Origin: an uncultured Nitrospiraceae bacterium | GTDB taxonomy: Bacteria; Nitrospirota; Thermodesulfovibrionia; Thermodesulfovibrionales; Dissulfurispiraceae | Length of the DNA stretch: 38,619 bases | Direction: 5' to 3' | Assembly: GCA_947085205.1 (NCBI GenBank) | Contig: CAMTVO010000059.1 | Coordinates: forward strand, 1-38,619 | In this document: positions 3,811 through 38,471 of the stretch, piece after piece | How positions within the stretch are numbered: the stretch's first letter is position 1 | Layout of the letters: each line of letters opens with the position of its first letter | The notes under the pieces: generated by a model | Told to the model about the DNA's origin: nothing | The model's input: only the letters and a program-made list of their open reading frames with translations | Databases searched by the model: none | Made by a program: the position numbers and the translations under genes

Positions 3811-5004
3811 TTAATTGTAAGTCTTGAACTTCATGGTTTCATTTATAGCTTCAACTATATGCTTCACCGGCCTGTCTTTAATTCTGCTTCTAAGCTGCAG
3901 TATGCAGTTCGGGCATGATGTAATAATCATGTCCGCCTTTTTATATTCCTCTACCCTTTTTTCGAGCATCCCTTCTGAAAGTTCCTGATATAATAACCTA
4001 AATGTGCCGCCAAATCCACAGCATCCGCTCTCGGAATCCATCAGGCTGAAACCCAATGATTTCAATATCTGCCTTGGTTCCGAGCGCACATTCAAACTGT
4101 ACATTGAATGGCATGGATCGTGATAAACCACACGGAATGGAGAGTTTTGAGTTAAGAGTTTTGAGTTAAGTAACTCTGGACTCCTAACTCCAAACTCCGA
4201 ACTAAAGAACTCCGATACCTCGACAGCATTTTCTATCGCCTCTCCAAAAATGCCTTTATACTCATTTTTGATAAAATGGACACAGGTAGGGCAGAGGCCT
4301 ATTACCGATTCTACATTGAGTCTTTTGAAGGCATTAATGTTTCTCTCCGCCATCTCAGCGGCGTCCTCTTTAAGGCCTAATCCCATTAAAGGCGCACCGC
4401 AGCAGACCTCCCCTTTTGGGAGAACAACGTCATAATTCATTGCATTGAGGCTGTTTATAAGAGACCTTCCAATATCAGGATAAAGGAAATTAACGCTGCA
4501 GCCTGTAAACACCGCAATCCTTCCTTTCGGCTTTGACGCCTTGAATATAGAAACACCGTCTCTGAGCGCAGAATCAGGGAAGCGAATATCCATCCTCTTT
4601 ATTACATTAAACGGATAGAGCTTATAAACAGGAATTATTTCATTCACTGTTTCGAGAAATTTAAAAATCCTGAAAGAGTTTGATGCGCGTTTAAGTCCAA
4701 ACCTCACTCCGAGGCTGAAAAGCCTTCTCTTTTTGCTGAATTCCTTAAGGTTTTTTCTTCCCTCGTAAATGGCATCGGTTACATTAATCCCAAGCGGACA
4801 GAGTTTATTGCATGCCCCGCAGAGTATGCAGCTGAATATCCTGTCATTCAGTTTGTTTGAAGGATCGAGACCTCCTTCGTAAAAGTTTTTAAGAAGGATA
4901 ACCCTGCCCCTTGCGCTCATTCCTTCGGTTACATCTTCAGCATAGGTAGGACACAATGCCTTGCAGCTGCCGCATTTTACACAAAAATTCAGTTCATAGT
5001 TCAT
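3811..5004 (-). CDS. GlcF/LutA-like Fe-S protein: 2x[4Fe-4S] ferredoxin plus two CCG domains
   Basis: CVKCGSCKALCP, CILCGACNKLCP, FTGC..CCG..CPTC, YHDPCH..CCG..SCPNC. Confidence 0.85.
   Translation of the reverse strand: MNYELNFCVKCGSCKALCPTYAEDVTEGMSARGRVILLKNFYEGGLDPSNKLNDRIFSCILCGACNKLCPLGINVTDAIYEGRKNLKEFSKKRRLFSLGVRFGLKRASNSFRIFKFLETVNEIIPVYKLYPFNVIKRMDIRFPDSALRDGVSIFKASKPKGRIAVFTGCSVNFLYPDIGRSLINSLNAMNYDVVLPKGEVCCGAPLMGLGLKEDAAEMAERNINAFKRLNVESVIGLCPTCVHFIKNEYKGIFGEAIENAVEVSEFFSSEFGVRSPELLNSKLLTQNSPFRVVYHDPCHSMYSLNVRSEPRQILKSLGFSLMDSESGCCGFGGTFRLLYQELSEGMLEKRVEEYKKADMIITSCPNCILQLRSRIKDRPVKHIVEAINETMKFKTYN
4142..4203. repeat. Tandem-heptamer palindrome (GAGTTWW arms facing ACTC arms) within the CDS
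   Basis: gagtttt gagttaa gagtttt gagttaa / taactct ggactcc taactcc aaactcc gaact. Confidence 0.7.
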
Positions 5005-10333: not shown

Positions 10334-10431
10334 GGGAGCGCATAGGGTTCTGGTGTCCCTCCCGGACTTCAAATCCGGTGTTGCCGCCCAAAAGGTGGCA
10401 GGGTGGGTTCGATTCCCACACGCTCCCGCCA
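10334..10431 (+). tRNA. selC: tRNA-Sec (anticodon TCA)
   Basis: 98 nt. Anticodon arm CCGGA-CTTCAAA-TCCGG (TCA at 10369-10371), long variable arm TGCCGCC-CAAAA-GGTGGCA, 8-position acceptor plus 5-bp T stem, G discriminator, encoded CCA. Confidence 0.95.
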
Positions 10432-14910: not shown

Positions 14911-15525
14911 ATGAGCGAGATTTGTTGTGGTTTAAGGGTCGGGCAGGACGTCCCTGATTTCAAGCTCGAGACATATGAGCCGACAAAAGGAGATTTCGGG
15001 GAGATAAGCCTTGAGACACTTAAGGCAAACAAAAAGTGGACAATACTTTTCTTTTACCCTGCTGCCTTTACTTTTGTCTGAGCTACCGAGTTTGCTGCTC
15101 TGGCAGAGCAGTATGAGCGGTTCAAAAAAATGGGGGCGGAGGTAATTACTGTGAGCACAGACACAAAGTTCGTCCAGCTTGCGTGGCAGAGGGAAGAAAA
15201 AATGCTTAAAGATGTCACATATCCAATGGGTTCAGATCCCACAGGGAAATTATCGAGGATGTTTGGCGTCTATGACGAGGAAACAGGCCTTGCTCTCAGG
15301 GGAACATTCATAATCAGCCCCGAGGGAAAGCTATTGAACTCCGAGGTCAATTTCTACAATATGGGCAGAAATATCGATGAACTGATGAGGAAGTTTAAGG
15401 CAAACCTCCATCTCGCAAAGCATACCGCAGAAGGCTGCCCATCAAAATGGAAGGAAGAAGGAGATAAGACACTTAAGCCCTCTGCAAAAATGGTGGGCAA
15501 AGTATACGAGGCTTATGAAGGATAA
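14911..15525 (+). CDS. ahpC: AhpC/Prx1-type peroxiredoxin with selenocysteine at the peroxidatic position (U57), 204 aa
   Basis: GGAGG RBS and ATG 14911. The frame reads FFYPAAFTFV-TGA(15079-15081)-ATEF and continues into ORF 15130..15525 (ALRGTFII, GRNIDE, GCPSKW). Confidence 0.92.
15085..15121 (+). promoter_or_regulatory. Bacterial SECIS-like hairpin of the peroxiredoxin
   Basis: TGCTGCTC-TGGCA-GAGCAGTA, loop 19 nt after TGA, outer ACCG/CGGT pairing. Confidence 0.8.
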
Positions 15526-22775: not shown

Positions 22776-24185
22776 TCACCCTATCACCACTGAGGGCATG
22801 ATGCCGATGACGAAAACCATGATCACAGTGATAAGTATCGCAAGACCGAGGGATGGCGACAGCGATATTGCTGCCTCCTCTTTCATCTCCTTCATATACA
22901 TGTTCATCACTACCCTGAGATAGTAGTAAGCGGAGATGGCGCTGAATATTACGGCTATCACAACAAGCCATGTGTATCCTGCATTTATAGCTGCCATGAA
23001 GAGGTTGAATTTTCCTATGAATCCTGCTGTTGGAGGTATGCCTGTAAGTGAGAACATGAATACCAGCATCAATGCCGCTACAATGGGATGGCTCTTTGCA
23101 AGCCCTTCATAGTCCTTAATGTCAATACCTCTTTTAATTTCTAACTCTGAACTCTTTTCAAGAAGTATCACTATAGCAAACGCTCCGATGTTCATGAACG
23201 CATATATGAGCAGGTACACCATCATTGCACCCAATCCTTCATTCGTGCCGGTTATTATTCCAATCAGCATATACCCTGCATGGGCTATGGATGAGTATGC
23301 GAGCATTCTCTTGATGTTTGTCTGGACAATAGCGAGGACGTTGCCCACAGCCATCGTGAGTATCGCTATGCCTATAAGGATCGGTGTCCAGTCTGTCTGT
23401 ATACTCTGAAATGCTATGTAAAACACCCTTCCTATGACTGCAAAGCCCGCAGCCTTTGGCCCTACAGACATGAAAGCAGTTATAGATGTTGGCGCGCCCT
23501 CGTATACGTCAGGCGCCCACATGTGAAACGGCGCAGCCGCTATTTTGAATGAGAACGCTACTGTAATAAGTATCATGCTTAAAAGTAGTGTTGTTGTAGC
23601 TTCTGTGGTCTTAAGGTGCTCTGCTATTTTGTATATATCTGTTGTTGTTGTCATTCCGTATAAGAGCGATATTCCGTAAAGAAACAGCGCCGACGAAAAT
23701 GCTCCAAGGAGGAAGTATTTTATTGCCGCCTCATTAGACTTGATGTCATGCCTCTTTATTCCTGCAAGGATGTATGTGCTCAAGGCCATGAGCTCTAATC
23801 CGAGGTATAAGATTATCAAGTCCTTTGCTGATGCCATGAGCATCATCCCTGATGTAGCAAAAAGGAGCAGGCTGTAGTATTCTCCGTATTCCGCTTTCTG
23901 TCTCTGTATGTATTTCAATGATACGAGTATTGTCAGGATGAGGTTTATGATGAATATTACCTTAAAGTATGTGCTGTATGTGTCGCTTATGAACATTCCT
24001 CCAAATGTCTCTCCATAGCTCATGGGCAATGTGTAAAGGACTGCTGCTGCGGTTATTATTCCTATGAATGCAAGGATGCCTTTGTTTTTGAATATGAGTT
24101 CAAGTATGAGCAGCATTGTCGCAGATATTGTCATTATGAGTTCTGGTGTTACGGGTCTCAGGTCAGGGAATGGTATGTTCATCAT
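22776..24185 (-). CDS. nuoN: NADH-quinone oxidoreductase subunit N
   Basis: EAAIKYFLLG, FKIAAAPFHMWAPDVYEGAPT, KRMLAYSSIAH. Start at 24185 gives an ATGA overlap with the nuoM stop. Confidence 0.95.
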   Translation of the reverse strand: MMNIPFPDLRPVTPELIMTISATMLLILELIFKNKGILAFIGIITAAAVLYTLPMSYGETFGGMFISDTYSTYFKVIFIINLILTILVSLKYIQRQKAEYGEYYSLLLFATSGMMLMASAKDLIILYLGLELMALSTYILAGIKRHDIKSNEAAIKYFLLGAFSSALFLYGISLLYGMTTTTDIYKIAEHLKTTEATTTLLLSMILITVAFSFKIAAAPFHMWAPDVYEGAPTSITAFMSVGPKAAGFAVIGRVFYIAFQSIQTDWTPILIGIAILTMAVGNVLAIVQTNIKRMLAYSSIAHAGYMLIGIITGTNEGLGAMMVYLLIYAFMNIGAFAIVILLEKSSELEIKRGIDIKDYEGLAKSHPIVAALMLVFMFSLTGIPPTAGFIGKFNLFMAAINAGYTWLVVIAVIFSAISAYYYLRVVMNMYMKEMKEEAAISLSPSLGLAILITVIMVFVIGIMPSVVIG

Positions 24186-25699
24186 TTTATCACCTCTATG
24201 GCTTGTTGTGCTGTCTGGGCAAGTCCTGCTGTATTTATTCTCTCTATGAGGTTCTGCACCGATGCATCCATAAAACTCAGGAATGTGTTTGGATATATCC
24301 CTATCCATAACACAAGTATTATCAAAGGAACTATTGTCAGTATTTCCCTCGTGTCCATGTCAGGATGCCCCTGAACCTTTGGGTTTGTTTCCATAAAAAA
24401 GACCCTCTGGTAAAGCCAGAGCATATATGCTGCTCCGATGATTATTCCAGAAGCTGCAAGCACTCCGAGGGTCTTTGATGCAGCAAATCCTCCGACGAGG
24501 ATAAGAAATTCTCCTACAAACCCGTTTGTCCCGGGAAGTCCTATGGATGCGAGTGTAAATACCATAAAGAACGCTGCATATATCGGCATTATAGTAGAGA
24601 CACCTCCGTAGTCCTCTATCTGCCTTGTATGCGTCCTGTCATAGATCATTCCTATACATAAAAACAGTGCGCCTGTAACTATTCCATGGTTTATCATCTG
24701 CAATATCCCGCCCTGTATTCCCTGAACATTAAGTGCGAATATTCCCAGTGTTACGAATCCCATGTGGCTTACTGATGAGTATGCTATGAGTCTCTTTAAA
24801 TCCGTCTGTCCGAGGCAGATTATTCCGCCGTAGATTATGGCTATGACTGAAAGTATCATCATTGCAGGCGCCATTGCCTTTGTTGCTTCCGGGAATAGAG
24901 GCATACTGAATCTCAGAAATCCGTATGCACCCATTTTGATGAGTATGCCTGCAAGGATTACGCTTCCTGCTGTTGGCGCCTCTGTATGCGCATCAGGAAG
25001 CCATGTATGTACCGGCCACATCGGGACTTTCACTGCAAATGCTGCAAAGAACGCCCAGAAGAGGATTATCTGCATATTATACGGATAGTTCATTGTCATC
25101 ATTTTTAATATGTCAAAGCTCCTGTCTGTGTACAGATATAAGACGATAATGCCAACGAGCATCAGCACGCTGCCTATTAGTGTAAAGAGAAAGAATTTAA
25201 TTGCTGCATATACCCTGTTCGGTCCCCCCCATACTCCTATCAATAGATACATGGGTATTAGCATTGCTTCCCAGAATATATAGAACAGGAACAAGTCGAG
25301 GCTGCAGAATACTCCTATCATTGAGCCTTCTATTAGCAATAACGCCGCATAGAATTCCTTTGTCTTTTCTTTTATGCTGTTCCATGAAATTGTTACGCAG
25401 AGTATAGTAAGAAGCGTTGAGAGCAGCACGAACAGCACGCTTATTCCGTCTATTCCAAGCGCATACTTGATTCCCCATGAAGAAACCCATTCATGGGTCT
25501 CTGTGAACTGCATATTAGGCGTTGTCTTATCAAAGCTGCTGAACAGCGGGATGCTAAGAACAAATGTGATAAGGCTTATGAGCAGGGCTGTCCATTTTAC
25601 GAATGTATCGTTCGTCCTCTTTATCAAAGATATCAGTATCGCTCCGAATATGGGCAGAAATATTACTGTGCTTAGTATGGGGTAACCAAGTTGGGTCAT
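24182..25699 (-). CDS. nuoM: NADH-quinone oxidoreductase subunit M
   Basis: FWEAMLIP, AVKVPMWPVHTWLPDAHTEAPTAGS, LKRLIAYSSVSHMG. Confidence 0.95.
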   Translation of the reverse strand: MTQLGYPILSTVIFLPIFGAILISLIKRTNDTFVKWTALLISLITFVLSIPLFSSFDKTTPNMQFTETHEWVSSWGIKYALGIDGISVLFVLLSTLLTILCVTISWNSIKEKTKEFYAALLLIEGSMIGVFCSLDLFLFYIFWEAMLIPMYLLIGVWGGPNRVYAAIKFFLFTLIGSVLMLVGIIVLYLYTDRSFDILKMMTMNYPYNMQIILFWAFFAAFAVKVPMWPVHTWLPDAHTEAPTAGSVILAGILIKMGAYGFLRFSMPLFPEATKAMAPAMMILSVIAIIYGGIICLGQTDLKRLIAYSSVSHMGFVTLGIFALNVQGIQGGILQMINHGIVTGALFLCIGMIYDRTHTRQIEDYGGVSTIMPIYAAFFMVFTLASIGLPGTNGFVGEFLILVGGFAASKTLGVLAASGIIIGAAYMLWLYQRVFFMETNPKVQGHPDMDTREILTIVPLIILVLWIGIYPNTFLSFMDASVQNLIERINTAGLAQTAQQAIEVIK

Positions 25700-25756
25700 C
25701 TATCCTCCTTCTAAAATTACAGGTATGCGTGCGGTAAAAAGATTTACAGGCACCAC

Positions 25757-27682
25757 TCACTTTCCTGCTGCTATCAATACCAGCGTCAGTATCACAAAAA
25801 GCCCTATCGCCATGCTTATGGCATAGTGCTGTAAATGCCCGGTTTGGAGTTTCCTTAATCTCTCTCCAAAGTTCCTTATGGTTTGAGGCACGCCGTTCAC
25901 AATGCCTTCAATTATCTTTCCGTCCATCACTGCTACGAGTATGCTGCTTGCAATCCATTTTGACGGCCTTACGATTATGAAGTCATAAAGCTCGTCAATA
26001 TAGTATTTGTTCCAGAGGGTTGTATATATACCTTTGAATTTCTCTGCAAGGTTTTTAGGTATTTCTGGTTTTAATGAGTAGAATATCCATGATACGAATA
26101 TTCCCAATAATGCGCCTGCCACTGATATTGCCATCACCATATATTCCTCAGAGTGTGTTGCCGTTACATGAGGATGGCCTAACACAGGTTCAAAGAAATG
26201 GGCGATGACGTTGCTTCCTCCTAACGCAGCAGGTATTCCAACCCACCCTGCGGATATGGCTCCTATTGCAAGTATGATTAACGGTATGGTCATTATTTTG
26301 GGCGATTCGTGGAGATGGTGTTCCTGCTCATGCGTTCCCCTGAATTTGCCGTGAAATGCCAAAAAGATTATCCTGAAACTGTAAAATGCTGTCAGCGCCG
26401 CAACCACAGTTCCTATTGCCCATACTACTTTTCCTACTGTCCCGTGGTTGTATGCAAGCCATAAGATTTCATCCTTGCTGAAGAAGCCTGCAAGCCCTGG
26501 TATTCCTGCTATGCTCAAGGATGCTATGAGAAATGTCCAGTATGTTATGGGCATGTGCTTTTTCAATCCGCCCATTTTCTGGATGTTTAGCTCGCCTGCC
26601 ATAACGTGTATTACGCTCCCCGCTCCGAGAAACAGGAGGGACTTGAAGTATGCATGAGTGTATAAATGAAATATTCCTGCTCCGTATGCTCCAACGCCGC
26701 ATGCAAGGAACATATATCCGAGCTGGCTTACTGTCGAGTATGCCACTATCCTCTTTATGTCGTTCTGAACTAATGCAATGGTCGCAGCAAAAAGGGCTGT
26801 TATCGCCCCTGTTAATGCTATTACGTTCATTGCTATTTCCGAGAGGCTAAACAGCGGATTAAACCGCGCAACCATAAATACGCCTGCCGTGACCATTGTC
26901 GCTGCATGGATAAGAGCGCTGACAGGCGTCGGGCCTTCCATTGCATCAGGCAGCCATACATGCAGAGGTATCTGGGCGGATTTGCCAATTGCGCCGCAGA
27001 AAAGCAGTAATGCTATCAGGGTAATGAGGTCTACGTTGTATCCGAGTATGTTTATTGTCTGGCCTGTAAGTGTTCCTACTTTGGAAAATATGTCTGCATA
27101 ATGGAGTGTTCCGAGTGTCAGGAATATCATTATTACTCCTAACCCAAATCCGAAGTCTCCGAACCTGTTTACTATAAATGCCTTCTTTCCTGCATCCGAT
27201 GCGCTCTTCTTTTCATACCAGAATCCTATGAGGAAGTATGAGCAAAGACCCACCGCCTCCCATCCGAAGTACATCTGCATCAGGTTATTTGACATTACTA
27301 ACATGAGCATTGAGAATGTAAAGAGGCTTAAATATGCAAAGAACCTGTAGTATCCCTTGTCGCCGTGCATGTAGCCTACAGAGTATATATGAACAAACAG
27401 GCTTACGCTCGTAACAATGATAAGCATTACGGCAGTGAGTTGGTCTATAAGGAATCCTACTGTCACCTTAAAGTTTCCTGAAACTATCCAGTTGTATACG
27501 TCGTAGTTTATGACCTTTCCGTTTAAAACCTCCATGAATGTGCTTATAGAAGCAATGAATGAGCCTGCCACTGCGAGTATGCTCACCCAGTGGGCATTGT
27601 CTTTAATTATTTTTCTGCCGAATATTATGTTGATTGCAAATGCTATGAGCGGCAATAAAGGGATTAATAAGTATTTGTCCAT
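25757..27682 (-). CDS. nuoL: NADH-quinone oxidoreductase subunit L
   Basis: GWEAVGLCS, GKSAQIPLHVWLPDAMEGPTPVSALIHAATMV. Confidence 0.96.
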   Translation of the reverse strand: MDKYLLIPLLPLIAFAINIIFGRKIIKDNAHWVSILAVAGSFIASISTFMEVLNGKVINYDVYNWIVSGNFKVTVGFLIDQLTAVMLIIVTSVSLFVHIYSVGYMHGDKGYYRFFAYLSLFTFSMLMLVMSNNLMQMYFGWEAVGLCSYFLIGFWYEKKSASDAGKKAFIVNRFGDFGFGLGVIMIFLTLGTLHYADIFSKVGTLTGQTINILGYNVDLITLIALLLFCGAIGKSAQIPLHVWLPDAMEGPTPVSALIHAATMVTAGVFMVARFNPLFSLSEIAMNVIALTGAITALFAATIALVQNDIKRIVAYSTVSQLGYMFLACGVGAYGAGIFHLYTHAYFKSLLFLGAGSVIHVMAGELNIQKMGGLKKHMPITYWTFLIASLSIAGIPGLAGFFSKDEILWLAYNHGTVGKVVWAIGTVVAALTAFYSFRIIFLAFHGKFRGTHEQEHHLHESPKIMTIPLIILAIGAISAGWVGIPAALGGSNVIAHFFEPVLGHPHVTATHSEEYMVMAISVAGALLGIFVSWIFYSLKPEIPKNLAEKFKGIYTTLWNKYYIDELYDFIIVRPSKWIASSILVAVMDGKIIEGIVNGVPQTIRNFGERLRKLQTGHLQHYAISMAIGLFVILTLVLIAAGK

Positions 27683-27713
27683 GTTTTGCTCCGTAAAAAT
27701 TTGAAATTCTGTA

Positions 27714-28016
27714 TCATCCCTTCATCTCCATTATTTCGTCTGTATGCACTGCTGCCTTGTTCTTAAATAGCGCCACTAATATGGCTAATCCTATGGCCGC
27801 TTCTGCTGCTGCAACCGCGATTATGAAAAATACCAGTATCTGTCCCCTCAAGTCCTGCAGATAGTGGCTGAAGGCCACAAGGCTTATGTTCACTGAGTTG
27901 AGCATTAATTCTATGGACATGAGCATTATGATGATATTTTTTCTGATTAAAAATCCTATCATCCCTATTACGAATATTACCGCGCTCAGTCCTATATACC
28001 AGTCCAATGGCACCAT
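27714..28016 (-). CDS. nuoK: NADH-quinone oxidoreductase subunit K
   Basis: [18 protein letters not shown]. Confidence 0.95.
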
Positions 28017-28029
28017 TGCTCCTCCTTTT

Positions 28030-28113
28030 CAGAGTTATGGGATTTCAGAGTTGATCTGTAATATTTTTTCTCATTCCTAACTCTTAACTTCTTCACTCTT
28101 TAACTCCTTAACT
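28030..28113. repeat. Degenerate GAGTT/AACTC tandem-repeat palindrome between nuoJ and nuoK
   Basis: cagagttat..cagagttg ... cctaactct taacttct tcactctt taactcct taact. Confidence 0.5.
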
Positions 28114-28624
28114 TTTTAGCAAGCACTATCGCCCCTACTATGGCTATCAATAATATCAATGACGCTATTTCAAAAGGCAAAAGGTATTCGGTATACAACA
28201 GTTTGCCTATAGACTTTGTGTGCGTCTCCGCCTTAATCGCCTCTATGGTATATTGGCCGGCAGGCCCTTGCACAAGCTTGCTTATCACGAAGAACATAAG
28301 CATGAGCACCGATATTCCCAAGGCCACTCCAATAGGCCATTCGCCTATGAACCTCTCTGCAGTGAGCTCTTCTTTAAGGTTCAGCATCATTATCACAAAC
28401 AGGAACAGAACAAGTATCGCTCCTGCATACAGGATAACCTGCACCGCCGCAAGAAATTCTGCATTCAAAAACAGGTAAATGCCTGCTATATGAAAAAACA
28501 ATACCAGCATCCATAGCACGCTGTGCACAGGATTCCTCCTCGTTATAATCAACACGGACAAAACAACCGTTACAACTGCAAAATATCCAAAAAAGAGTTG
28601 GGGTAACATCAAATTTGTCATCAT
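28100..28624 (-). CDS. nuoJ: NADH-quinone oxidoreductase subunit J
   Basis: NPVHS, AEFLAAVQVILYAGAILVLFLF, PFEIAS. Confidence 0.95.
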   Translation of the reverse strand: MMTNLMLPQLFFGYFAVVTVVLSVLIITRRNPVHSVLWMLVLFFHIAGIYLFLNAEFLAAVQVILYAGAILVLFLFVIMMLNLKEELTAERFIGEWPIGVALGISVLMLMFFVISKLVQGPAGQYTIEAIKAETHTKSIGKLLYTEYLLPFEIASLILLIAIVGAIVLAKKLRS

Positions 28625-29172
28625 ACCTCTGGCCTCCTGCCTCTGAATATTGGCTGGTTTTCAGGGGTTGTGAAATCTTCTGTCCTCGGTCTCCAGAATT
28701 TATCGAAATACTCTTCACCTTTTTTGCCGGCCATAAATTTATCCCAGTTCGAAAGGAGCTTTTCTTTATCCATGTAAAGGGCATCCCTTGAATAATCGGA
28801 GTATTCAAAGTGGTCTGTAAGCACCACAGCGCCAAAAGGACATGCTTCAACGCAGAATGCGCAGTACACGCACCTTAAGACCTCTATTTCATACCTGTCA
28901 ACAATCTTGGTATGGTCTGCGCCCTCGCTGGTATATACATAAATACACTGCGACGGACATACAGCAGCGCAAAGGCCGCACCCAACGCATCTCGCCTTTC
29001 CGTCAGGGTTTCTCACAAGTGCGTGCAGTCCTCTGAAGCCTGGGAACGGCGGCCTCTTTTTCTCCGGATACTGCCTCGTTACCGCATGGGTGAACATCAT
29101 CTTCAATGTCAGCGTCATGCCCTTAAGTATCTCTATCAGAAAGACTTTCTTTGCTATGTCCTTAATCGTCAT
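28621..29172 (-). CDS. nuoI: NADH-quinone oxidoreductase subunit I
   Basis: CVGCGLCAAVCP, RCVYCAFCVEACP. GAGG RBS before ATG 29172. Confidence 0.93.
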   Translation of the reverse strand: MTIKDIAKKVFLIEILKGMTLTLKMMFTHAVTRQYPEKKRPPFPGFRGLHALVRNPDGKARCVGCGLCAAVCPSQCIYVYTSEGADHTKIVDRYEIEVLRCVYCAFCVEACPFGAVVLTDHFEYSDYSRDALYMDKEKLLSNWDKFMAGKKGEEYFDKFWRPRTEDFTTPENQPIFRGRRPEV

Positions 29173-29185
29173 GGTCTGTCCCTCT

Positions 29186-30223
29186 TCACATCGCATATTT
29201 AACAATTGACGTTACAACGATATTAGCCAATGCAAGCGGTATCAATACCTTCCAGCCTAATGACATCAACTTGTCGTATCTGTATCTCGGCACCGTCGCC
29301 CTTACCCAGTAATATAAAAAGATATGGAAGTACACCTTCCCTAAAAACCAGACTATACCAGGCACTGCTGCCAATGCCGGCACCCATTTCAGAAGCACGG
29401 GCGGTATTGTCCACCCTCCCCAAAAGCATATTACCGCTATGGACGCCATTATTATCATGCCGATATATTCTGCTGCAAAAAATAATGCAAACCTCATCCC
29501 GCTGTATTCAACAAAATATCCTGCGACCAGTTCGCTTTCTGCTTCAGGCAGATCAAAGGGGGTCCTGTTGGTCTCTGCAAACATGGCTACAACAAAGACA
29601 AAATATGCAACAAACTGCGGTATCAGATACATCCCATGCCAGTATTCCTGCTGTCCTTTTACTATTTCGCTGAGATTCAATGATCCGGACAGTATCATCA
29701 CTCCCACAAGGCTCAATCCCATCGCCACCTCATAGCTTATTAGCTGCGCCGATGACCTTAATCCCCCTAAGAATGAATACTTTGAGTTTGAAGCCCATCC
29801 GGCCATGACTACTCCATACGCAGCCAGCGATGACATGGCAAAGATATACAGCAATCCTATGTTGATGTCTGCTATTACGAATCCCTCAAAAAACGGTATT
29901 ACTGCAAGGGAGCTCATCGTTGCAAATAAAGCTATTAAAGGGGCTGTTTTAAATACAGGCTTGTCGGAATCTGCAGGTATGATGTCCTCTTTGAAAAATA
30001 GCTTCATGCCGTCTGCTATGGGCTGAAGTATCCCATGATACCCCACCCTCATGGGTCCGAGCCTCACCTGCATGTGTCCTATTACCTTCCTTTCAAAATA
30101 TGTGGCATATGCCACATGGAGCATGGTCACGCCTATGACTATCGCTATCTTGATGAAAATAAAAACAATATTCAGCATCCAGTTGGAACTTCCCGTGTAC
30201 ATTATCGTCTCAAGGATATCCAA
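29186..30223 (-). CDS. nuoH: NADH-quinone oxidoreductase subunit H
   Basis: ERKV..MQ.R.GP, QPIADG.KL..KE, AETNRTPFDLPEAESELVAG. Confidence 0.96.
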   Translation of the reverse strand: MDILETIMYTGSSNWMLNIVFIFIKIAIVIGVTMLHVAYATYFERKVIGHMQVRLGPMRVGYHGILQPIADGMKLFFKEDIIPADSDKPVFKTAPLIALFATMSSLAVIPFFEGFVIADINIGLLYIFAMSSLAAYGVVMAGWASNSKYSFLGGLRSSAQLISYEVAMGLSLVGVMILSGSLNLSEIVKGQQEYWHGMYLIPQFVAYFVFVVAMFAETNRTPFDLPEAESELVAGYFVEYSGMRFALFFAAEYIGMIIMASIAVICFWGGWTIPPVLLKWVPALAAVPGIVWFLGKVYFHIFLYYWVRATVPRYRYDKLMSLGWKVLIPLALANIVVTSIVKYAM

Positions 30224-32841
30224 GCTGACACCTCCTTAGCCGCGCTCTTTATCTTTTTTATTGCTGCTTCCGTAAAATCCATAACAGGCGATTTTGTTAC
30301 AGGATGCATTTTCCATTTCATAATCTTAAATATTCCTTTATCATCAAAATAATTTGGTATTAAGACGATATTCTCCGGCAGATCAGAATCTATCCGGATA
30401 GACAGTTCAACACTCCCTGCATCTGTGGAGATGCTGACATAATCGCCGCTGGCTATGGACAGCTTTTCTGCAAGCGCGCTGCTTATTTTTACATACGGCT
30501 CAGGTGATATACTATGCAATGCAGCGGAGTTGCTGCTCAGGGTGTCTGCATGAAAGAGAGGATTGTCGATTCCGACATAAATCCTGTTTTTATCCGGTCT
30601 CATCATAAGTGATTGCACATCCGGCACCTCGATGCCTTCGATACTCACTCCATGCCTGAGAGGCTCTCCCTTATAAGGCCACATGCATCTGCCTTCGGCC
30701 ATGTCTTCGTAAATAATATCCTTGTGCAGCGGCGAAACCTTTGCAATTTCCGCCATTACATCCCTTGAACTTCTGTAATTCATATCAAAGCCCAACATTT
30801 TGCTGATTTCTGAGATTGCCTGCCAGTCTTCCATTCCATTTCCTTCTACAGCCCTTTCGAGCCGCTGCATCCTTCTTTCGAGATTAGTATAAGAGCCTTC
30901 TTTTTCGGACCACGAAAGTGAAGGCAGCACTACATCAGCAAGCTGTGCGGTCTCTGTCATAAAAATATCCTGCACGACCAAAAGCTCCAGATTGGCCAAG
31001 GCTCCCTTCACGTACGTGCTGTTTGGAATGCTGGACACAATATTTTCGCCTAATATATACATTGCTCTTATCGTATTGGAGTTGGCGCCGTCTATCATCT
31101 CCATCAGGCTGAGACCCTGCCTCGGAGAAACTTCAACTCCTAAGAATTCCTCATATCTTCTCCTGAAGCTCTCGACAGTCAAATGCCTTCCTCCAGGCAG
31201 CATATCAGGCAGGCATCCCATGTCGATAAGACCCTGCTCGTTGGGAAGCTCGGAAAGGAGATAAATCCTGCCGTTCAATAAATGTATGAGCGCTGCAAGC
31301 AGCAATAAGTTCGCATGCCCTTCTGACCTCTGCAGAATATCCATTCCGATAATTATCGAAGGATTATTCATTTTCGACATCGAATCCAGAGCGCCTCTCA
31401 TATCATCCGCAGAAATCCCGCATATATCTTTTGCATCGTTTATAGAAACTTCGGGAATGGTCCTTATTATTCCCTCGAAAGACGACTTTTCCAAGGAAAG
31501 CTCTCTTTTGGCCTTAAGCTCCGATACCATAGCGGCTAAAAGAGTAGTCTCTGTAAACGGCTGTGTGATTAGCCTGTTTGCCGAAAACCTCTTTAGCCCC
31601 GGCATGTATCCTATTGTCACCACAGGGATGCCTTTCTGGTATGCAGACCTTATCTGCAATCCTAAAACAGGATTTATAGATGCCGGGTCTCCTCCGACGG
31701 CAATGATACCGTCGGAATTGGATATGCCGTGCATCGAGTTTGCCGTAACTCCCTGTCCGAAAATGCCTTCGAAAAATTTCTGTGCAGGCGCATAGGCAAA
31801 GCCGGCTGCCGAATCGATATTGTTGGTGCCGAGCACAATCCTCATAAACTTCTGAAAAACATACCCGTCCTCATTTGTGCATCTTCCCGAAATAACTCCA
31901 GCTATAGAATCGCCGCCGTGCATCTCTTTTATTCTCTTCAACCCGTTTGCAATGTATGCCAATGCCTCGCTCCATGTCGCTTTTTCAAGATTTCCGTTCT
32001 TCTTTATGAGCGGTGAATCAAGCCTTTTTTTGCTGCGCACATAATCGTAACCGAATCTTCCCCTGTTGCAAAGCAGTCCTTTATTTACACCCTTGTCTGT
32101 CTTCGGCACAGCCCTTACAATGGAATTAGCCCTAACCTGCAAAACCATCGAGCATCCGACACCGCAGAATGAGCATACAGTGTCAATCTCTTTGTCTATA
32201 AGCCACGGCCTGTAGGCATGTTTGTGCATCCTCGACATTATTGCTCCGACAGGGCATACCGTCAGGCAGTTTCCGCAATACTCGCAGTCGTACCTGCCTC
32301 CGGAGAACGGCTCGACAAATGACTTGCTGCTCCTGTTTGTAATCGAGATGGCCGATGCACTCTGCATATTGTCGCACATCCTCACGCATCTGGCACAGAG
32401 GATACATCGCTCCATGTTTCTTACAATAATCGGGTCGTCGTAACTCTCTGGATGTGTTCTTTTGCCTTCTGCAAACCTGCCTGTTGCAGGCCCGTATTTT
32501 ACTACAAGGTCTTGAAGGTCGCACTCCCCTGCCTTGTCGCAATAAGGACAATCGAGAGGGTGATTAATCAACAGAAATTCTAGCACTGCCTTTCTCGCCT
32601 CTATTACACGCTCGGTCTCTGTCCAGACCACCATGCCGTCGATAACATACTGCGTGCATGCAGTCTGGAGCCTCGGCATCTTTTCCACCTCTACAACACA
32701 GAGCCTGCATCCGCCGTAAGGCTCCAGCATCTCGTGATGGCAGAGTGTGGGAATATTTATTCCTGCCATGCCAGCTGCTTCAAGGATTGTAACTGGTTTT
32801 TCGAGTTCTATTTTTTTGCCGTTTATCGTTACAGTAATCAT
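30202..32841 (-). CDS. nuoG: NADH-quinone oxidoreductase subunit G (long form)
   Basis: N1b Cys motif, HPLDCPYCDKAGECDLQD, CILCARCVRMC, CSFCGVGC...C (N7-type), long molybdopterin-fold C-terminus. Confidence 0.9.
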   Translation of the reverse strand: MITVTINGKKIELEKPVTILEAAGMAGINIPTLCHHEMLEPYGGCRLCVVEVEKMPRLQTACTQYVIDGMVVWTETERVIEARKAVLEFLLINHPLDCPYCDKAGECDLQDLVVKYGPATGRFAEGKRTHPESYDDPIIVRNMERCILCARCVRMCDNMQSASAISITNRSSKSFVEPFSGGRYDCEYCGNCLTVCPVGAIMSRMHKHAYRPWLIDKEIDTVCSFCGVGCSMVLQVRANSIVRAVPKTDKGVNKGLLCNRGRFGYDYVRSKKRLDSPLIKKNGNLEKATWSEALAYIANGLKRIKEMHGGDSIAGVISGRCTNEDGYVFQKFMRIVLGTNNIDSAAGFAYAPAQKFFEGIFGQGVTANSMHGISNSDGIIAVGGDPASINPVLGLQIRSAYQKGIPVVTIGYMPGLKRFSANRLITQPFTETTLLAAMVSELKAKRELSLEKSSFEGIIRTIPEVSINDAKDICGISADDMRGALDSMSKMNNPSIIIGMDILQRSEGHANLLLLAALIHLLNGRIYLLSELPNEQGLIDMGCLPDMLPGGRHLTVESFRRRYEEFLGVEVSPRQGLSLMEMIDGANSNTIRAMYILGENIVSSIPNSTYVKGALANLELLVVQDIFMTETAQLADVVLPSLSWSEKEGSYTNLERRMQRLERAVEGNGMEDWQAISEISKMLGFDMNYRSSRDVMAEIAKVSPLHKDIIYEDMAEGRCMWPYKGEPLRHGVSIEGIEVPDVQSLMMRPDKNRIYVGIDNPLFHADTLSSNSAALHSISPEPYVKISSALAEKLSIASGDYVSISTDAGSVELSIRIDSDLPENIVLIPNYFDDKGIFKIMKWKMHPVTKSPVMDFTEAAIKKIKSAAKEVSAWISLRR

Positions 32842-34097
32842 ACCCCTGCCTTTGCATGCTTGCCTGTGTGCCGTTCAAATTCATGCCTGAAATTTTTTAT
32901 ACAGCTCTGCACAACAGAAGCAGCACCATCCCCAAGGGGACAGAAAGTTTTTCCCATAATGTTTTTTGCGACCTCCATCAATAGGTCTATATCGCCTTCT
33001 GCTCCTGAACCGCTGCATATCCTTTCGAGTATGGCGCGAAGCCACCCGATACCTTCCCTGCATGGTGTGCATTTGCCGCATGACTCGTGCTCGAAAAACT
33101 TAATCGCCCTGTAACAGACCTTCACGAGGTCGACAGTATCATCAAAGACTATTACAGCTCCTGACCCGAGCATGCTCCCGTGTTTTGGCATATTAATGAA
33201 ATCCATCGGACAATCTATCTTGTCTGCTGGAAGTATAGGTGTGGATATACCGCCTGGGATTACAGCCTTGAGTTTTTTGTCGCTGCGGATGCCTCCGCAA
33301 TGCGTATAGATAATCTCCCTTAATGTAGTGCCCATCGGAAGTTCATAAACTCCAGGCATTTTCACATGACCGCTTACCGAATAAAGCTTAGGTCCCGGGC
33401 AGTCCGGACTGCCGATTTTGGAGTATGCATCTGCTCCGATTTCCATAATGTAAGGAATGTTTGCGAGGGTTTCGACATTATTGACAACCGTAGGTCTCGA
33501 AAGAAATCCCTCGTTTACCGGAAATGGCGGCTTAATCCTCGGCTGTCCCCTCTTCCCTTCAAGGGACTCTATAAGCGCTGTCTCCTCTCCGCATATATAT
33601 GCGCCTGCGCCCTGATGCACATTCAGATGGAATGTTATTCCTTTGCCGAGGACATCATCTCCAATATAGCCTTTTTCGCCTGCCTGCCTGATCGCATTTT
33701 CCAGTATCTCCTTTGCCTGAGGATATTCTCCTCTTAGATAGATATACCCATATTCTGCCTCAAGGGCATACCCTGAGATAATCATCCCTTCTATCAAAAG
33801 ATGTGGGTTCTTTTCGAGAATTGGCCTATCTTTAAATGTACCCGGCTCTCCTTCGTCTGCATTACACAAAATAAATTTAGGCTTTTTGGGGTCTGCTGCA
33901 GCGAAAGACCATTTCATTCCTGCCGGGAATCCTGCGCCGCCCCTTCCTCTCAGCCCGGACTTTTTAACTTCATCGATAATATCCGAAGGCTTTAGCTCCA
34001 GCGCCTTAGAAAGGGCTTTATATCCTCCGGCTTTTATATACTCAAAAATATCGGCTGAGTTTGGATTCTCTATGTTTTTAAGCAGAAACCTTTCCAT
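32838..34097 (-). CDS. nuoF: NADH-quinone oxidoreductase subunit F
   Basis: LRGRGGAGFP.G.KW, NADEGEPGTFKDR, GAYICGEET, SCGKCTPCREG. Start moved to ATG 34097. Confidence 0.95.
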   Translation of the reverse strand: MERFLLKNIENPNSADIFEYIKAGGYKALSKALELKPSDIIDEVKKSGLRGRGGAGFPAGMKWSFAAADPKKPKFILCNADEGEPGTFKDRPILEKNPHLLIEGMIISGYALEAEYGYIYLRGEYPQAKEILENAIRQAGEKGYIGDDVLGKGITFHLNVHQGAGAYICGEETALIESLEGKRGQPRIKPPFPVNEGFLSRPTVVNNVETLANIPYIMEIGADAYSKIGSPDCPGPKLYSVSGHVKMPGVYELPMGTTLREIIYTHCGGIRSDKKLKAVIPGGISTPILPADKIDCPMDFINMPKHGSMLGSGAVIVFDDTVDLVKVCYRAIKFFEHESCGKCTPCREGIGWLRAILERICSGSGAEGDIDLLMEVAKNIMGKTFCPLGDGAASVVQSCIKNFRHEFERHTGKHAKAGV

Positions 34098-34098
34098 C

Positions 34099-34563
34099 TT
34101 ACTTGTATTTCTCCAATACCGAGAAAATATTCTCTTCTGTGAGATTTTCATAAAAGTCCGTATTCACAAGCATTGCAGGGGCTGTGCCGCAAGCGCCTAT
34201 GCACTCCATAATCACAAGAGAAAACCTTCCGTCAGGAGTTGTGCCGTTCGGTTCAAGCCCGTATTTTTCTTTTAATATATCCGCAAGTCTCTCCGCGCCC
34301 ATGATCATGCAGGCAACATTAGTGCAAAGCTGAATAAGATTTCTGCCCATAGGCTTGTGCCTGAACATGGAATAAAAGGTAGAAACTCCCTTTACTGTTG
34401 CTATGGGAACATTCAATAAATCTCCGACAGCCGACATAGAATCTTGGCTGAGCCATCCATGTTCCCTCTGGACAACATAAAGGGCTGGCAGCAGAGAAGA
34501 TTGCCCATTGTGATATTTACTCTTTATCCGGTTAATTTCTAATACTGTTTCTTCTTTCAGCAT
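34099..34563 (-). CDS. nuoE: NADH-quinone oxidoreductase subunit E
   Basis: TFYSMF, CTNVAC, ECIGAC..AP [2Fe-2S] motif. Confidence 0.95.
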   Translation of the reverse strand: MLKEETVLEINRIKSKYHNGQSSLLPALYVVQREHGWLSQDSMSAVGDLLNVPIATVKGVSTFYSMFRHKPMGRNLIQLCTNVACMIMGAERLADILKEKYGLEPNGTTPDGRFSLVIMECIGACGTAPAMLVNTDFYENLTEENIFSVLEKYK

Positions 34564-35763
34564 TTATCTGTCACACTCGCCAAGCACTATATCGATGGTT
34601 CCTATGTTTGCAATCACGTCTGCTACAAGGGATCCTTCGCACAGCCTCGGCAGAATCGATACATGCACAAATGAAGGCGCCCGCAATCTCATCCTATACG
34701 GCCTTCCGCTTCCGTCGCTCACAAAGTAGAATCCGAGTTCACCTTTAGGCACTTCTGTTGCTACGTATATCTCGCCCTCAGGCGCTGCGATGGGGCCCTT
34801 TGTTATCAGGACAAACTGGTGTATCAAAGATTCCATGTCGGATAAGACCCTGTCTTTTGGAGGAAGTGTAAATTTAGGGGCGTCAGGAGACATAACCGGC
34901 CCTTTAGGCATCTTTTCAATGCACTGTTTAATAATCCTATTAGACTGCTTCAACTCCTCCATCCTGCATTTGTACCTGTCATACACATCTCCGTTCTTTC
35001 CTATGGGAACTTCAAATTCAACCTTGTCATAAGCATCATACGGTGCATATTTCCTTACGTCATAAGGCACTCCAGAACCTCTCAATGTCGGGCCTGTCAG
35101 TCCCCAGTTTATTGCTTCTTCTGCGCTTATGACTCCTATGCCCTTTGTCCTCTGAAGCCATATCCTGTTCTGGTCTATCAATGTCTCGTACTGGTCTTCA
35201 ATTATCTTCGGAAACTCTTCGGTAAATTCGTATAACCTGTCAAGGAATTCCTGACTTACGTCGTTCCTCACTCCGCCTATCCTCGGATAGCTTACGGTAA
35301 GCCTTGCGCCGCATGTCATTTCAAATAAATCCATAAGCCGCTCTCTGTCTCTGAATGAGTACAAAAACAGTGTCATTGCTCCTATATCGAGCGCATGGGT
35401 GGAAACTCCTATTATGTGGCTGCTTATCCTGGTCATTTCTGCCATTATTGTCCTTATGTATTTGGCCCTATCCGGCGGCTCTATCCCGAAGAGCCTCTCA
35501 ATAGCAACACAGTAACCAACATTATTTGACATGCTGGATATGTAATCAAGTCTGTCTGTCAGTGGCAGTGCAGATATGTATGTCCTGTTTTCTGCAAGCT
35601 TTTCTACTCCCCTGTGAAGGTAACCTACATAAGGCGTGCATTTGACTACTGTCTCTCCGTCAAGGTCAAGGACAAGTCTAAGCACTCCATGGGTTGCCGG
35701 GTGCTGAGGCCCCATGCTGATGGTTAGTTCTTTGGGCTTGATTTCTTTTGCCACTGCTGACAT
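34564..35763 (-). CDS. nuoD: NADH-quinone oxidoreductase subunit D
   Basis: [33 protein letters not shown]-terminus, no NiFe CxxC motifs. Confidence 0.96.
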
Positions 35764-35764
35764 T

Positions 35765-36301
35765 TTACCCGACCTCGTATTCTTTGTTCTTCTTTGCTGC
35801 TTCTACTGTTTCTTTATATCCCTTCCATTCCATTTCGCCAAGGTCGCTCTTCAATGGATAGTCTTTCCTCAACGGGTGTCCTTCCCAGTCCTCAGGCATG
35901 AGTATTCTCCTTAAGTCCGGATGTCCTTTGAACTCTATGCCGTACATGTCATAGCATTCCCTTTCATGCCAGTTTGCTCCTGTCCATATATCTACTACGC
36001 TTTCTATTGTGCAGTCTTCCTCCGGCACTTCCGCTTTTATCCTTATCATGTGTCTGTGTCTCATGGAATATAAATGATAGACCACTTCAAACCTGACTTC
36101 TTTTTTGCCGAAAAAATCCACGCCGCAGAGGTCTTCAAGGTAATCGAAATATAATTCAGGAGTGTTGTGAAAGTATTTCATTATCTCTTTTATCCTGTCT
36201 TTTTTGACTACTACCGATACCTGTCCTCGAAATTCTTTTATTTCTTTTACTTCTGTGGGGTATCTGTCCTTTATTAGCTCTGCTATTTCCTTCGCTTCCA
36301 T
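35765..36301 (-). CDS. nuoC: NADH-quinone oxidoreductase subunit C
   Basis: [44 protein letters not shown]. Confidence 0.96.
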
Positions 36302-36312
36302 GTTTCTCCTCT

Positions 36313-36454
36313 ATAGTGCGATAGTTAAATTAGTTATTTAGTGCGACAGTTTTTTATAAGGAATAAAATTTTCCATAATTTAACTGTCGCTCTGTCGCTC
36401 TATTAACTGTAGCACTGATGTCGCTCTGTCGCACTATTAACTATAGAACTATCG
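36313..36454. repeat. Tandem-octamer palindrome between nuoB and nuoC
   Basis: atagtgcg atagttaa ... tagtgcg acagtt facing aactgtc gctctgtc gctctatt aactgtag ... gcactatt aactatag aactatcg. Confidence 0.75.
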
Positions 36455-36976
36455 TTATCTCCATCTGCTCCATTTGAAATGCTCTTTCTTTATCTTTTCC
36501 TGAAGCTTGATTATCCCTTCCATTAAGGCCTCCGGTCTCGGAGGACATCCAGGTATATACACATCCACAGGCAAGAATGTGTCACATCCCTGCACTGTGC
36601 TGTATGTGTTGAATATGCCTCCGCTGCATGCACAGCTTCCCATAGATATTACATATCTCGGCTCGGGCATCTGGTCATAGACTCTCCTTACTATCGGCGC
36701 CATCTTCTTTGTGACTGTGCCTGCAATGATTACAAAGTCCGCCTGTCTGGGTGATCCCCTGAAGATTACTCTCAATCTGTCCAGGTCATAGTGTGACGAT
36801 CCCGCCGTCATCATTTCTATGGCGCATCAGGCCAAGCCAAAGGTCATTGGCCATAATGACGACAGCCTTCCCCAGTTCACTATCTTGTCAAAGCTGGCTA
36901 TGATGGTGTTGGCGCCTGGGATTACTTTCAACCCTTCTTCTACTTCTACCAATGCCGTTGTTCCGTCTATTACCAT
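36455..36976 (-). CDS. nuoB: NADH-quinone oxidoreductase subunit B with in-frame TGA, predicted selenocysteine U50, 173 aa
   Basis: GGAGGTGAGG RBS and ATG 36976. The frame reads ...[19 protein letters not shown](36829-36827)-CAIEMM and continues into ORF 36814..36455 ([19 protein letters not shown]). Confidence 0.9.
36788..36820 (-). promoter_or_regulatory. Bacterial SECIS-like hairpin of nuoB
   Basis: mRNA ATAG-AAA-TG-A-TGACGG-[CGGGA]-TCGTCA-CA-CTAT, with the apical loop 22 nt after TGA. Confidence 0.7.
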
Positions 36977-36996
36977 ATTCCCTCACCTCCTGTTTT

Positions 36997-37395
36997 TCAG
37001 TCCCACTTGAATGCTTCTTTTTTCCATGCGTATATGTAACCAACCAATAATATAGATATGAATAACATCATCTCTATCAATGCGTAAAGACCTATTTTCT
37101 CATAAACAATCGCCCATGGATATAAAAAAACCGCTTCTACATCGAATATTACAAAGAGCATCGCAATAATGTAAAACTTGATGCTGAATCTGTATCTCGG
37201 CTCTCCTACCGGCGGGTTTCCTGATTCGTAAGCAAGCAGCTTCTCTTTGTAAGGCCTCCTCAGCCTGAACAGGTTGCCCACAAACAATGCCCCTGCTCCA
37301 AAGGCAAAGGCTATCATCATTATGATCAATACGGGTAGGTACTCTGTGGGTATGTAACTGCCTGGCGTCATTGTATTTATGCTCGGTGGGTTCAT
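36997..37395 (-). CDS. nuoA: NADH-quinone oxidoreductase subunit A
   Basis: AYESG, KFYIIAMLFVIFDVEAVFLYPWA. Start uncertain (37401, 37395 or 37371). Confidence 0.93.
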   Translation of the reverse strand: MNPPSINTMTPGSYIPTEYLPVLIIMMIAFAFGAGALFVGNLFRLRRPYKEKLLAYESGNPPVGEPRYRFSIKFYIIAMLFVIFDVEAVFLYPWAIVYEKIGLYALIEMMLFISILLVGYIYAWKKEAFKWD

Positions 37396-37437
37396 ACTCA
37401 CCTCGATTTACAAAATTTTTACATCAAAAACGCTCTA

Positions 37438-37595: not shown

Positions 37596-38471
37596 TTATT
37601 GGATAAGCTTTTCAATAATCTTGTCGACCTTGATCCTGTTAAACTCAAAACCAAGATCTTTCTCGCTTAGCCCCATTGCAAGTCCAATAACCTGGGTAAA
37701 ATAAAGCACAGGCAAGTTGAACTCCTTCCCAACTCTTTTCCCGACCAGTTTCTGGTTATTTTCATAAGCTATGCAGCATGAAGGACAGGCAACAACCATT
37801 GCATCCACTCCTTTATTGGATAAACATTCAAGTTTCTCCGCCGCAAGCCTGAAGCTTATATTCTCGGCTGTCCCCATTATTGTCAGGCCGCAGCAGAGGT
37901 TTTTATTCGGATAATTAATAGCCCTTGCACCGGTAATATTTATAAGTTCATCAATGGTGAACGGGTTTGTAGGGTCATCAAAGCGACCATGAGCATGGGT
38001 CGGTTTCATATAGTGGCATCCGTAATGAATCCCAAACTCCAAAGACGCTAACGGAGTTGCAATTTTATCTCTTATACTATCCGGCCTATAATCTTCATAT
38101 AAAAACCTTGCAAAATGCTTGACCTTTACTTTACTGGTGTATTCTTTTACTCCAAGAGACTTTAACTTTCCATTAACCTGCTCTCTCAGTTTTTCATCTT
38201 CAAGATACTCCTTTGCCTCTGAAAGGATTGCCATACATCCGGTACAGACGCCGATGATATCCATACCCTTTTCTTCTGCTATGGCGAGATTACGGGCAGC
38301 CATAAGAAGAGCGGCAAAAGAGTCCATTGATTTCACAGGGAATCCGCAGCAACTGAATTCAGGAATATCAACCAATTCTATGCCGAGGATTTTGGCAAGA
38401 TTTCTCGTAGATATCTCATATTTTAATGCCTTAACAGGTGTTGCGCAGCCGGGATAAAAGGCATATCTCAT
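37596..38471 (-). CDS. hdrB: Heterodisulfide reductase subunit B (CCG domains)
   Basis: YAFYPGC, FSCCG, AARNLA.AE, CTGC, HYGCH..KP, CCG, ACPSC, LPVLYFTQ. Confidence 0.88.
   Translation of the reverse strand: MRYAFYPGCATPVKALKYEISTRNLAKILGIELVDIPEFSCCGFPVKSMDSFAALLMAARNLAIAEEKGMDIIGVCTGCMAILSEAKEYLEDEKLREQVNGKLKSLGVKEYTSKVKVKHFARFLYEDYRPDSIRDKIATPLASLEFGIHYGCHYMKPTHAHGRFDDPTNPFTIDELINITGARAINYPNKNLCCGLTIMGTAENISFRLAAEKLECLSNKGVDAMVVACPSCCIAYENNQKLVGKRVGKEFNLPVLYFTQVIGLAMGLSEKDLGFEFNRIKVDKIIEKLIQ

Follow-up and report, generated by a model that had tools for sequence, protein, structure and literature searches.

The closest described relative of the gene analysed here is the canonical Cys-type NuoB/Nqo6/PSST subunit of respiratory complex I (NDUFS7; TIGR01957, PF01058). 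Cluster N2, a [4Fe-4S] cluster, and its strained tandem ligation are central to the question of how the reduction of quinone drives proton pumping in complex I (PMC4893023 and PMC8042128, in the parts available). The gene at our locus shows the same full-length match, ligand spacing, and placement between nuoA and nuoC as the canonical subunit, but its first tandem ligand is encoded by TGA and followed by a downstream hairpin. Selenocysteine (U, Sec) is absent from this position in the best 120 bacterial database homologues, 118 of which have CC, one GC, and one a motif variant.

Sec in place of Cys is known from other redox or Fe-S proteins, namely HdrA (CxxU), MvhD/VhuD (CxxU), and the Fe-S cluster domain and (2Fe-2S)-binding selenoproteins. 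The Sec of HdrA and MvhD binds an Fe-S cluster. These families, which appear in the available part of Table 1 of a 2026 review (PMC13188914), have different folds and belong to different complexes, and proton-pumping complex I has none of them among its core subunits. [quoted passage not shown] The [NiFeSe] hydrogenases, in which Sec is a metal ligand, are related to the NuoB/NuoD module, their large subunit being the NuoD homologue. NuoB from our locus weakly matches the [NiFeSe] hydrogenase small subunits (NF045520, E 4e-5). Sec in these hydrogenases is a ligand to the Ni of the large subunit and not to the proximal Fe-S cluster held by the small subunit (PMC13188914, available in part). The original prediction did not know NuoB as a standard bacterial selenoprotein family, which agrees with its absence from the 119-family prokaryotic Table 1 of the 2026 catalogue, in the part available, where an Oxidored_q6 protein with a UC tandem ligand motif is not found either (PMC13188914). 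NuoB is likewise absent from the deep-Sep text and supplements examined, and NADH or complex I terms are absent from the main text of an algal selenoproteome paper (PMC7539508). Topic searches of the openly accessible literature surfaced, among the papers listed, none on Sec-NuoB or Sec-NDUFS7.

The features of the locus within the window (the whole stretch of DNA that was analysed, 38,619 nucleotides) are as follows.

36455..36976, minus strand: nuoB, N2-binding subunit of complex I, 173 codons with U50 (translation, NuoB HMMs)
36827..36829, minus strand: in-frame TGA, predicted Sec50, first tandem N2 ligand (translation and alignment)
36824..36826, minus strand: Cys51, second tandem N2 ligand (alignment)
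36632..36634, minus strand: Cys115, third N2 ligand, motif SMGSC (alignment)
36545..36547, minus strand: Cys144, fourth N2 ligand, motif PGCPP (alignment)
36792..36813, minus strand: predicted SECIS of bacterial type, with 36810-36805 pairing with 36799-36794 in the upper stem and a CGGGA loop at 36804-36800
36984..36991, minus strand: Shine-Dalgarno sequence AGGAGGTG of nuoB, 7 nt before the ATG
36997..37401, minus strand: nuoA, whose stop is TGA, used normally
22776..36301, minus strand: nuoC, D, E, F, G, H, I, J, K, L, M, and N, without internal stops
10334..10431, plus strand: selC, tRNA-Sec with UCA anticodon and G discriminator, the sole UCA tRNA found in the assembly

The nuoB frame has a single internal stop, the TGA at 36829-36827, which lies between FGLA and CAIEMM. 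Read with U50, the product scores 241.8 bits against TIGR01957 (cut-off 142.7) and 249.4 against NF005012 (cut-off 116), both NCBIfam HMMs. Residue 50 falls on the first C of GLACC in the phmmer alignment with mammalian NDUFS7 and corresponds to residue 45 of T. thermophilus Nqo6, 63 of E. coli NuoB, and 85 of Y. lipolytica NUKM, equivalences that come from the offsets of phmmer match ranges since the printed alignments cover mammalian NDUFS7 only. C51, C115, and C144 match the other three N2 ligands in the same match ranges, and a set of four ligands is therefore obtained only if the TGA at codon 50 is decoded. The nuo operon runs from nuoA to nuoN in order and encodes a full 14-subunit NADH-type complex I, in which each of the 13 other ORFs (A, C-N) is free of internal stops and matches its NCBIfam family. 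The named database homologues of the nuoB product are from Nitrospirae, Dissulfurispiraceae, and Thermodesulfovibrionales, which suggests that the organism belongs to Thermodesulfovibrionia. The elements of the original prediction other than its hairpin were thus recovered: one in-frame TGA at the first tandem ligand column of an otherwise intact nuoB, the ribosome-binding site at 36991-36984, the remaining N2 ligands, 13 intact nuo genes, and selC (tRNA-Sec(tca)) in the same window.

Some further features of the operon and its surroundings were noted. At position 36772, nuoB specifies Arg69, a residue that is Gly in homologues. Since one contig of public run X1 carries the Gly codon there, the Arg reflects either strain variation or an error of assembly. 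An extra Cys, C117 (36626-36628, minus strand), lies two residues past the third ligand in the motif GSCAC, which is common in the clade, in U and C forms alike, at a position where the model enzymes have Asn. The spacer between nuoB and nuoC (36302-36454) holds a repeat recurring on many contigs of the genome, and an HdrB/SdhE-like gene (37596-38471, minus strand) sits immediately upstream of nuoA in the same orientation.

The original prediction had proposed a search of related genomes for TGA/Cys pairs. Across 61 genomes of the order we found 65 close nuoB matches (identity 72% or more), 42 of which are stop-free and 23, in 21 genomes, have one TGA. In all 23 the TGA falls on column 50, which extends the observation to 20 genomes other than that of the window. 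Two genomes (G003 and G022) each carry one TGA nuoB and one Cys nuoB. A TGA-specific pattern, applied to 401 genomes of the phylum, matched 34, every one of them among the 135 genomes of the window's class; the 266 genomes outside this class and the controls gave 0 matches. It also matched 4 of 301 genomes of Desulfobacterota, all four matches being nuoB genes with an open frame. In metagenomes, where the pattern by design forces TGA in every match, it retrieved 116 loci, all of them free of further stops over the aligned part; L209 and L214 have a frameshift near residue 146. The TGA-bearing kin are not independent of one another. SelA was above cut-off in all 43 TGA-bearing genomes checked (21 + 22); because selA is found in 59 of the 61 genomes of the order, Cys-type carriers included, its co-occurrence with TGA is uninformative inside the order. 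A contig search with Cys-assuming patterns returned 80 loci, and the matches listed are Cys-type at column 50 because the patterns assumed Cys. One 'TGA' row (G008:C1:608642) was rejected as a NuoB Sec site, being a hydrogenase-4-like small subunit whose match starts at query 50-51. No residues co-varying with the U state were found in four motifs (NuoD motifs and the vicinity of C115).

The hairpin downstream of the UGA, described as SECIS-like in the original prediction, was evaluated with our own version of the published bSECIS model, with criteria taken from Fig. [quoted passage not shown] The nuoB hairpin has this geometry, its loop CGGGA lying 22 nt after the UGA with G in the second loop position. 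Its energy is -5.8 in our scorer versus the published limit of -7.5 kcal/mol, and -9.5 in a wider window; the hairpin of a paralogue in the same genome, described below, reaches -8.3 kcal/mol. It is no more stable than shuffled sequences (z -1.04, with 35 of 200 shuffles as good), and 19 of 60 synonymous recodings are as good. What makes the hairpin credible is therefore the comparative data only, not its own stability.

For this comparison, distinct genes coding for the same peptide, MMTTGSSH, were divided into 49 TGA and 17 Cys genes. Synonymous diversity at codons 57–62 was 0.05 in the TGA genes, versus 0.62 at 43 codons elsewhere, and 0.67 in the Cys genes, versus 0.68 elsewhere. T57, T58, S60, and S61 are written ACG, ACG, TCG, and TCA in 49 of 49 TGA genes, where the loop codon (GGN) alone varies, and are scattered over synonymous codons in the 17 Cys genes. 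The window's nuoB differs by T58A, which changes an A-U to a G-U pair, and is outside the set of 49; its paralogue is inside. We regard this comparison as decisive evidence that the predicted hairpin is under synonymous constraint in the TGA genes only. Folding of the segment from +13 to +42 agrees, with a mean of -8.86 kcal/mol for 41 distinct TGA segments versus -4.77 for 43 close Cys segments. At -5.5, the bSECIS model accepts 113 of 115 TGA genes versus 12 of 44 close Cys genes, and 63 of the 115 TGA genes pass at -7.5 kcal/mol; the scorer is not specific, since it also accepts 47 of 84 distant GC-rich Cys genes at -5.5. TGA lineages with other peptides (AVGASH, AAGSSH, ACGSSH, AVYASH, AAGTAR, and ASLASY) each have a hairpin with a G-led loop 20–25 nt after the UGA. 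A single register imposed on all 35 TGA hairpin types shows no covariation, with no excess over shuffles (144 of 500 scored as high) or slid controls, since the lineages use different registers, and the synonymous recoding control per peptide type was mixed, with 0 to 23 of 60 recodings as stable in 16 bacterial types. The hairpin of the original prediction is real, with the correction that it is not unusually stable on its own.

The original prediction had also asked for the Sec machinery and for a second, Cys-type nuoB. The genome encodes selA (C30), selB (C28), and selD (C19), all above curated cut-offs, and selD itself carries one TGA. A second nuoB does exist (C28:23212-23730), with TGA in the same column and the same hairpin; the two paralogues share 84% protein and 77% DNA identity. 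Its operon (C28:12088-26439) opens with genes for a PhsA-like molybdoenzyme and a ferredoxin-like subunit, continues with nuoB, D, I, A, C, H, J, and K, and codes for four antiporter-like subunits; nuoEFG are missing from it. The assembly, 89.7% complete, yielded no nuoB of the Cys type, and on present data both pumps would therefore depend on UGA decoding, both complex I-type operons using a UGA-encoded NuoB ligand. TGA also serves as a normal stop in this genome: among 857 long ORFs, 253 end in it, as do 8 of the 14 nuo genes.

Elsewhere in the genome, selB lies about 6 kb downstream of the second complex I-like operon. In the window, a peroxiredoxin gene of the AhpC family (14911-15525, plus strand), a known selenoprotein type, has a TGA at 15079 between FTFV and ATE with a strong downstream hairpin, and sits in an oxidative-stress cluster with perR, hemerythrin, bacterioferritin, and flavodiiron genes. 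Other in-frame TGAs that lie in Sec-like motifs and have hairpins, with labels assigned by eye, are in genes for glutaredoxin-like (C16:37999), DsbC-like (C2:30493), rhodanese (C46:2962), DsrE-like (C62:11001), multiheme cytochrome (C38:37745), and FdhA (C22:11145) proteins, besides SelD (C19:28660). A genome-wide TGA read-through scan gave 67 candidates, including selD, fdhA, and the peroxiredoxin; it missed both nuoB genes and, being insensitive, was used only for examples. Contig C52 carries two tRNA-Sec-like tRNA-Cys(GCA) genes (C52:2097-2179 and 4315-4426, minus strand), one with a very long variable arm, and these flank what we take to be a YeeE/YedE-like gene near LysR and YedF-like genes.

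With the TGA shared by the paralogue and 20 other genomes, selA, selB, and selD present, and the hairpin constrained in TGA genes, the proposal that this UGA is decoded as Sec gains strong support, and we consider it highly probable from these genomic data that nuoB encodes a selenoprotein. Translation would start at the ATG at 36976 and end at the TAA at 36457. SelB would bind the stem-loop located 22 nt downstream of codon 50 and bring to this codon the Sec-tRNA(Sec) that SelA and SelD would make according to established bacterial Sec biology. The product would be a full NuoB in which, by homology, U50, C51, C115, and C144 bind N2, so that the terminal electron donor to quinone would have one selenolate and three thiolate ligands.

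A eukaryotic counterpart was found among the 116 metagenome TGA loci. Two of them, L230 (1-1195) and L244 (1-1007), are single-gene records of 67–69% GC that encode a mitochondrial-type PSST with a presequence; they have TGA at the N2-ligand column, TAG and TGA as normal stops, and no bacterial hairpin. Common to the two 3'UTRs is a SECIS-like element, which in L244 matches Rfam SECIS_1 with an E of 0.0043 and 29.1 bits, below the gathering threshold of 35, and in L230 gave no SECIS_1 match; its two copies, the whole of this comparison, differ by two compensatory pairs. For the PSST N-terminal half, the best homologue that bears a species name comes from the haptophyte Diacronema lutheri, with Cys. 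Of 105 short PSST homologues (P0283 and P0296-P0388 included), known as proteins and not by their stop codons and favoured as truncated proteins by the search, 94 end exactly after FGLA. In the related cluster, the same end is found in 36 among 53 listed members, including KOO23862.1 of Chrysochromulina tobinii, annotated as a 76-residue fragment that stops just before the candidate Sec codon. Four full-length CC proteins in the same cluster may be Cys alleles or gene-caller readings. These records point to a probable Sec-PSST in prymnesiophyte haptophytes, whose mitochondrial enzyme seems to have acquired the TGA ligand independently of bacteria.

The history of the switch was followed in a quick maximum-likelihood tree of NuoB with 215 rows (249 before thinning), which left out rows with fewer than 115 aligned residues and metagenome rows more than 95% alike to a kept TGA row. 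The tree needs 21 U/C changes, at least 6 of them forced by strong branches. Three Cys genes (L022, L028, and L155) keep the TGA-type hairpin, and a fourth (L138) nearly does; all are placed among TGA genes, which lends modest support to frequent Sec-to-Cys reversion, and we regard these four as probable recent reversions. There are also TGA rows well outside the clade centred on Thermodesulfovibrionia (L165/L194/L233/L268; L168; L230). A single ancient origin with many losses may be compatible with this tree. We somewhat favor the view that the first tandem ligand turned into Sec on several independent occasions, both in anaerobic bacteria, Thermodesulfovibrionia among them, which would use in-frame SECIS elements of their own, and in the nucleus-encoded mitochondrial PSST of prymnesiophytes, with a 3'UTR SECIS.

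Other readings of the codon were weighed against Sec decoding. The UGA could be read as Cys by a SelC*-type tRNA-Cys(UCA) of the kind found in some Desulfobacterales, always or under selenium shortage, and the NuoB made would be the ordinary Cys form with an unusual control of its translation. Thermodesulfovibrio/Nitrospirae are reported to have selC* genes, and a tRNA-Cys(UCA) can decode opal codons (PMC5389517, available in part). The two SelC*-like tRNA-Cys genes on C52 of this genome recall that case, but both have a GCA anticodon, the sole UCA tRNA found being the tRNA-Sec with its G discriminator, and one cysS and one selB are above cut-off with no second copies in the 89.7% complete assembly, which makes this reading very unlikely. 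That nuoB is a pseudogene, that its TGA is an assembly error, or that a truncated protein is made from M55 is more improbable still, to the point of being effectively refuted. An ORF of 119 aa from 36814 does exist under table 11, and the comparison data for the codon are contigs and not raw reads. The M55 product, however, would be without both tandem ligands, and the TGA is common to two paralogues of 77% DNA identity and more than 100 other loci, with synonymous constraint around it, frames open on both sides, and no other stop type or position in the 65 close matches. Contigs of three public runs, of which X1 may be the source of the assembly, span 36827-36829 without any difference among the rows listed; the contigs of run X6 do not reach the codon, and RNA run X9 has diverged relatives only. 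A variant code with TGA as Trp or Gly throughout the organism has almost nothing left in its favor. It could be suggested by a database NuoB with Gly at this column (MBI3592630.1) and by PSST records of the P0009 cluster with Trp, cases most simply explained, judging from the protein records, as code choices of gene callers. For this genome it is refuted by the normal TGA stops counted above and a tRNA-Trp with CCA only, and the TGA aligns with an invariant Cys ligand.

A further alternative agrees with Sec decoding and competes on function only: Sec may be inserted and yet be near-neutral, with Cys and Sec drifting into each other in selenium-rich anoxic habitats and perhaps only coupling complex I synthesis to selenium. 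The 21 U/C changes, at least 6 of them forced, the hairpins kept by Cys genes among TGA genes, and the two genomes with one nuoB of each type are in line with such drift. On the other side, only one of the four ligands is affected (23 of 23), the constrained hairpin is a cost, and the change recurs at the same ligand in bacteria far apart and, with what is probably another type of SECIS, in eukaryotes. We therefore consider near-neutrality possible but rather unlikely.

Given Sec decoding, what the selenolate may do can be judged by analogy with described enzymes. In Y. lipolytica NUKM, C85 and C86 are the strained tandem pair and C150 and C180 the other N2 ligands, with C85 being the most mobile tandem ligand, near the quinone-ligating Y144 (PMC8042128, available in part). 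The N2 potential differs by species and quinone type, and redox-linked changes of its ligands have been proposed but not verified (PMC4893023, available in part). The pKa of a selenol is 5.2 versus 8.3 for a thiol (PMC13188914, available in part). A selenolate at the tandem ligand could thus stabilize the bond or shift the N2 potential. Because the Cys form is fully viable in sister lineages, Sec would represent tuning and not new chemistry; frequent reversion argues for tuning or near-neutrality, and the restriction to one of four ligands together with the recurrence in distant lineages argues for a specific benefit. Our tentative preference, held with less than even confidence, is that the benefit would be a sturdier bond at the strained, most mobile tandem ligand next to the quinone-binding Tyr of NuoD, the alternatives being a modest shift of the N2 potential or near-neutral interchange.

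Sec-NuoB is very probably a new selenoprotein family and a new complex I variant, with which a core respiratory subunit would join the selenoproteome. It would also account for the annotation of nuoB and PSST genes as fragments in databases. As a natural Se substitution at an N2 ligand, it would provide matched U/C pairs and a selenium handle for spectroscopy of the bond, and Chrysochromulina tobinii is a cultured eukaryote in which the Sec-PSST claim is directly testable. If the repeated, independent acquisition is true, complex I would be a natural selenoenzyme in both domains, convergence would mark this ligand as a functionally tunable site, and the core respiration of bloom-forming algae would depend on selenium.
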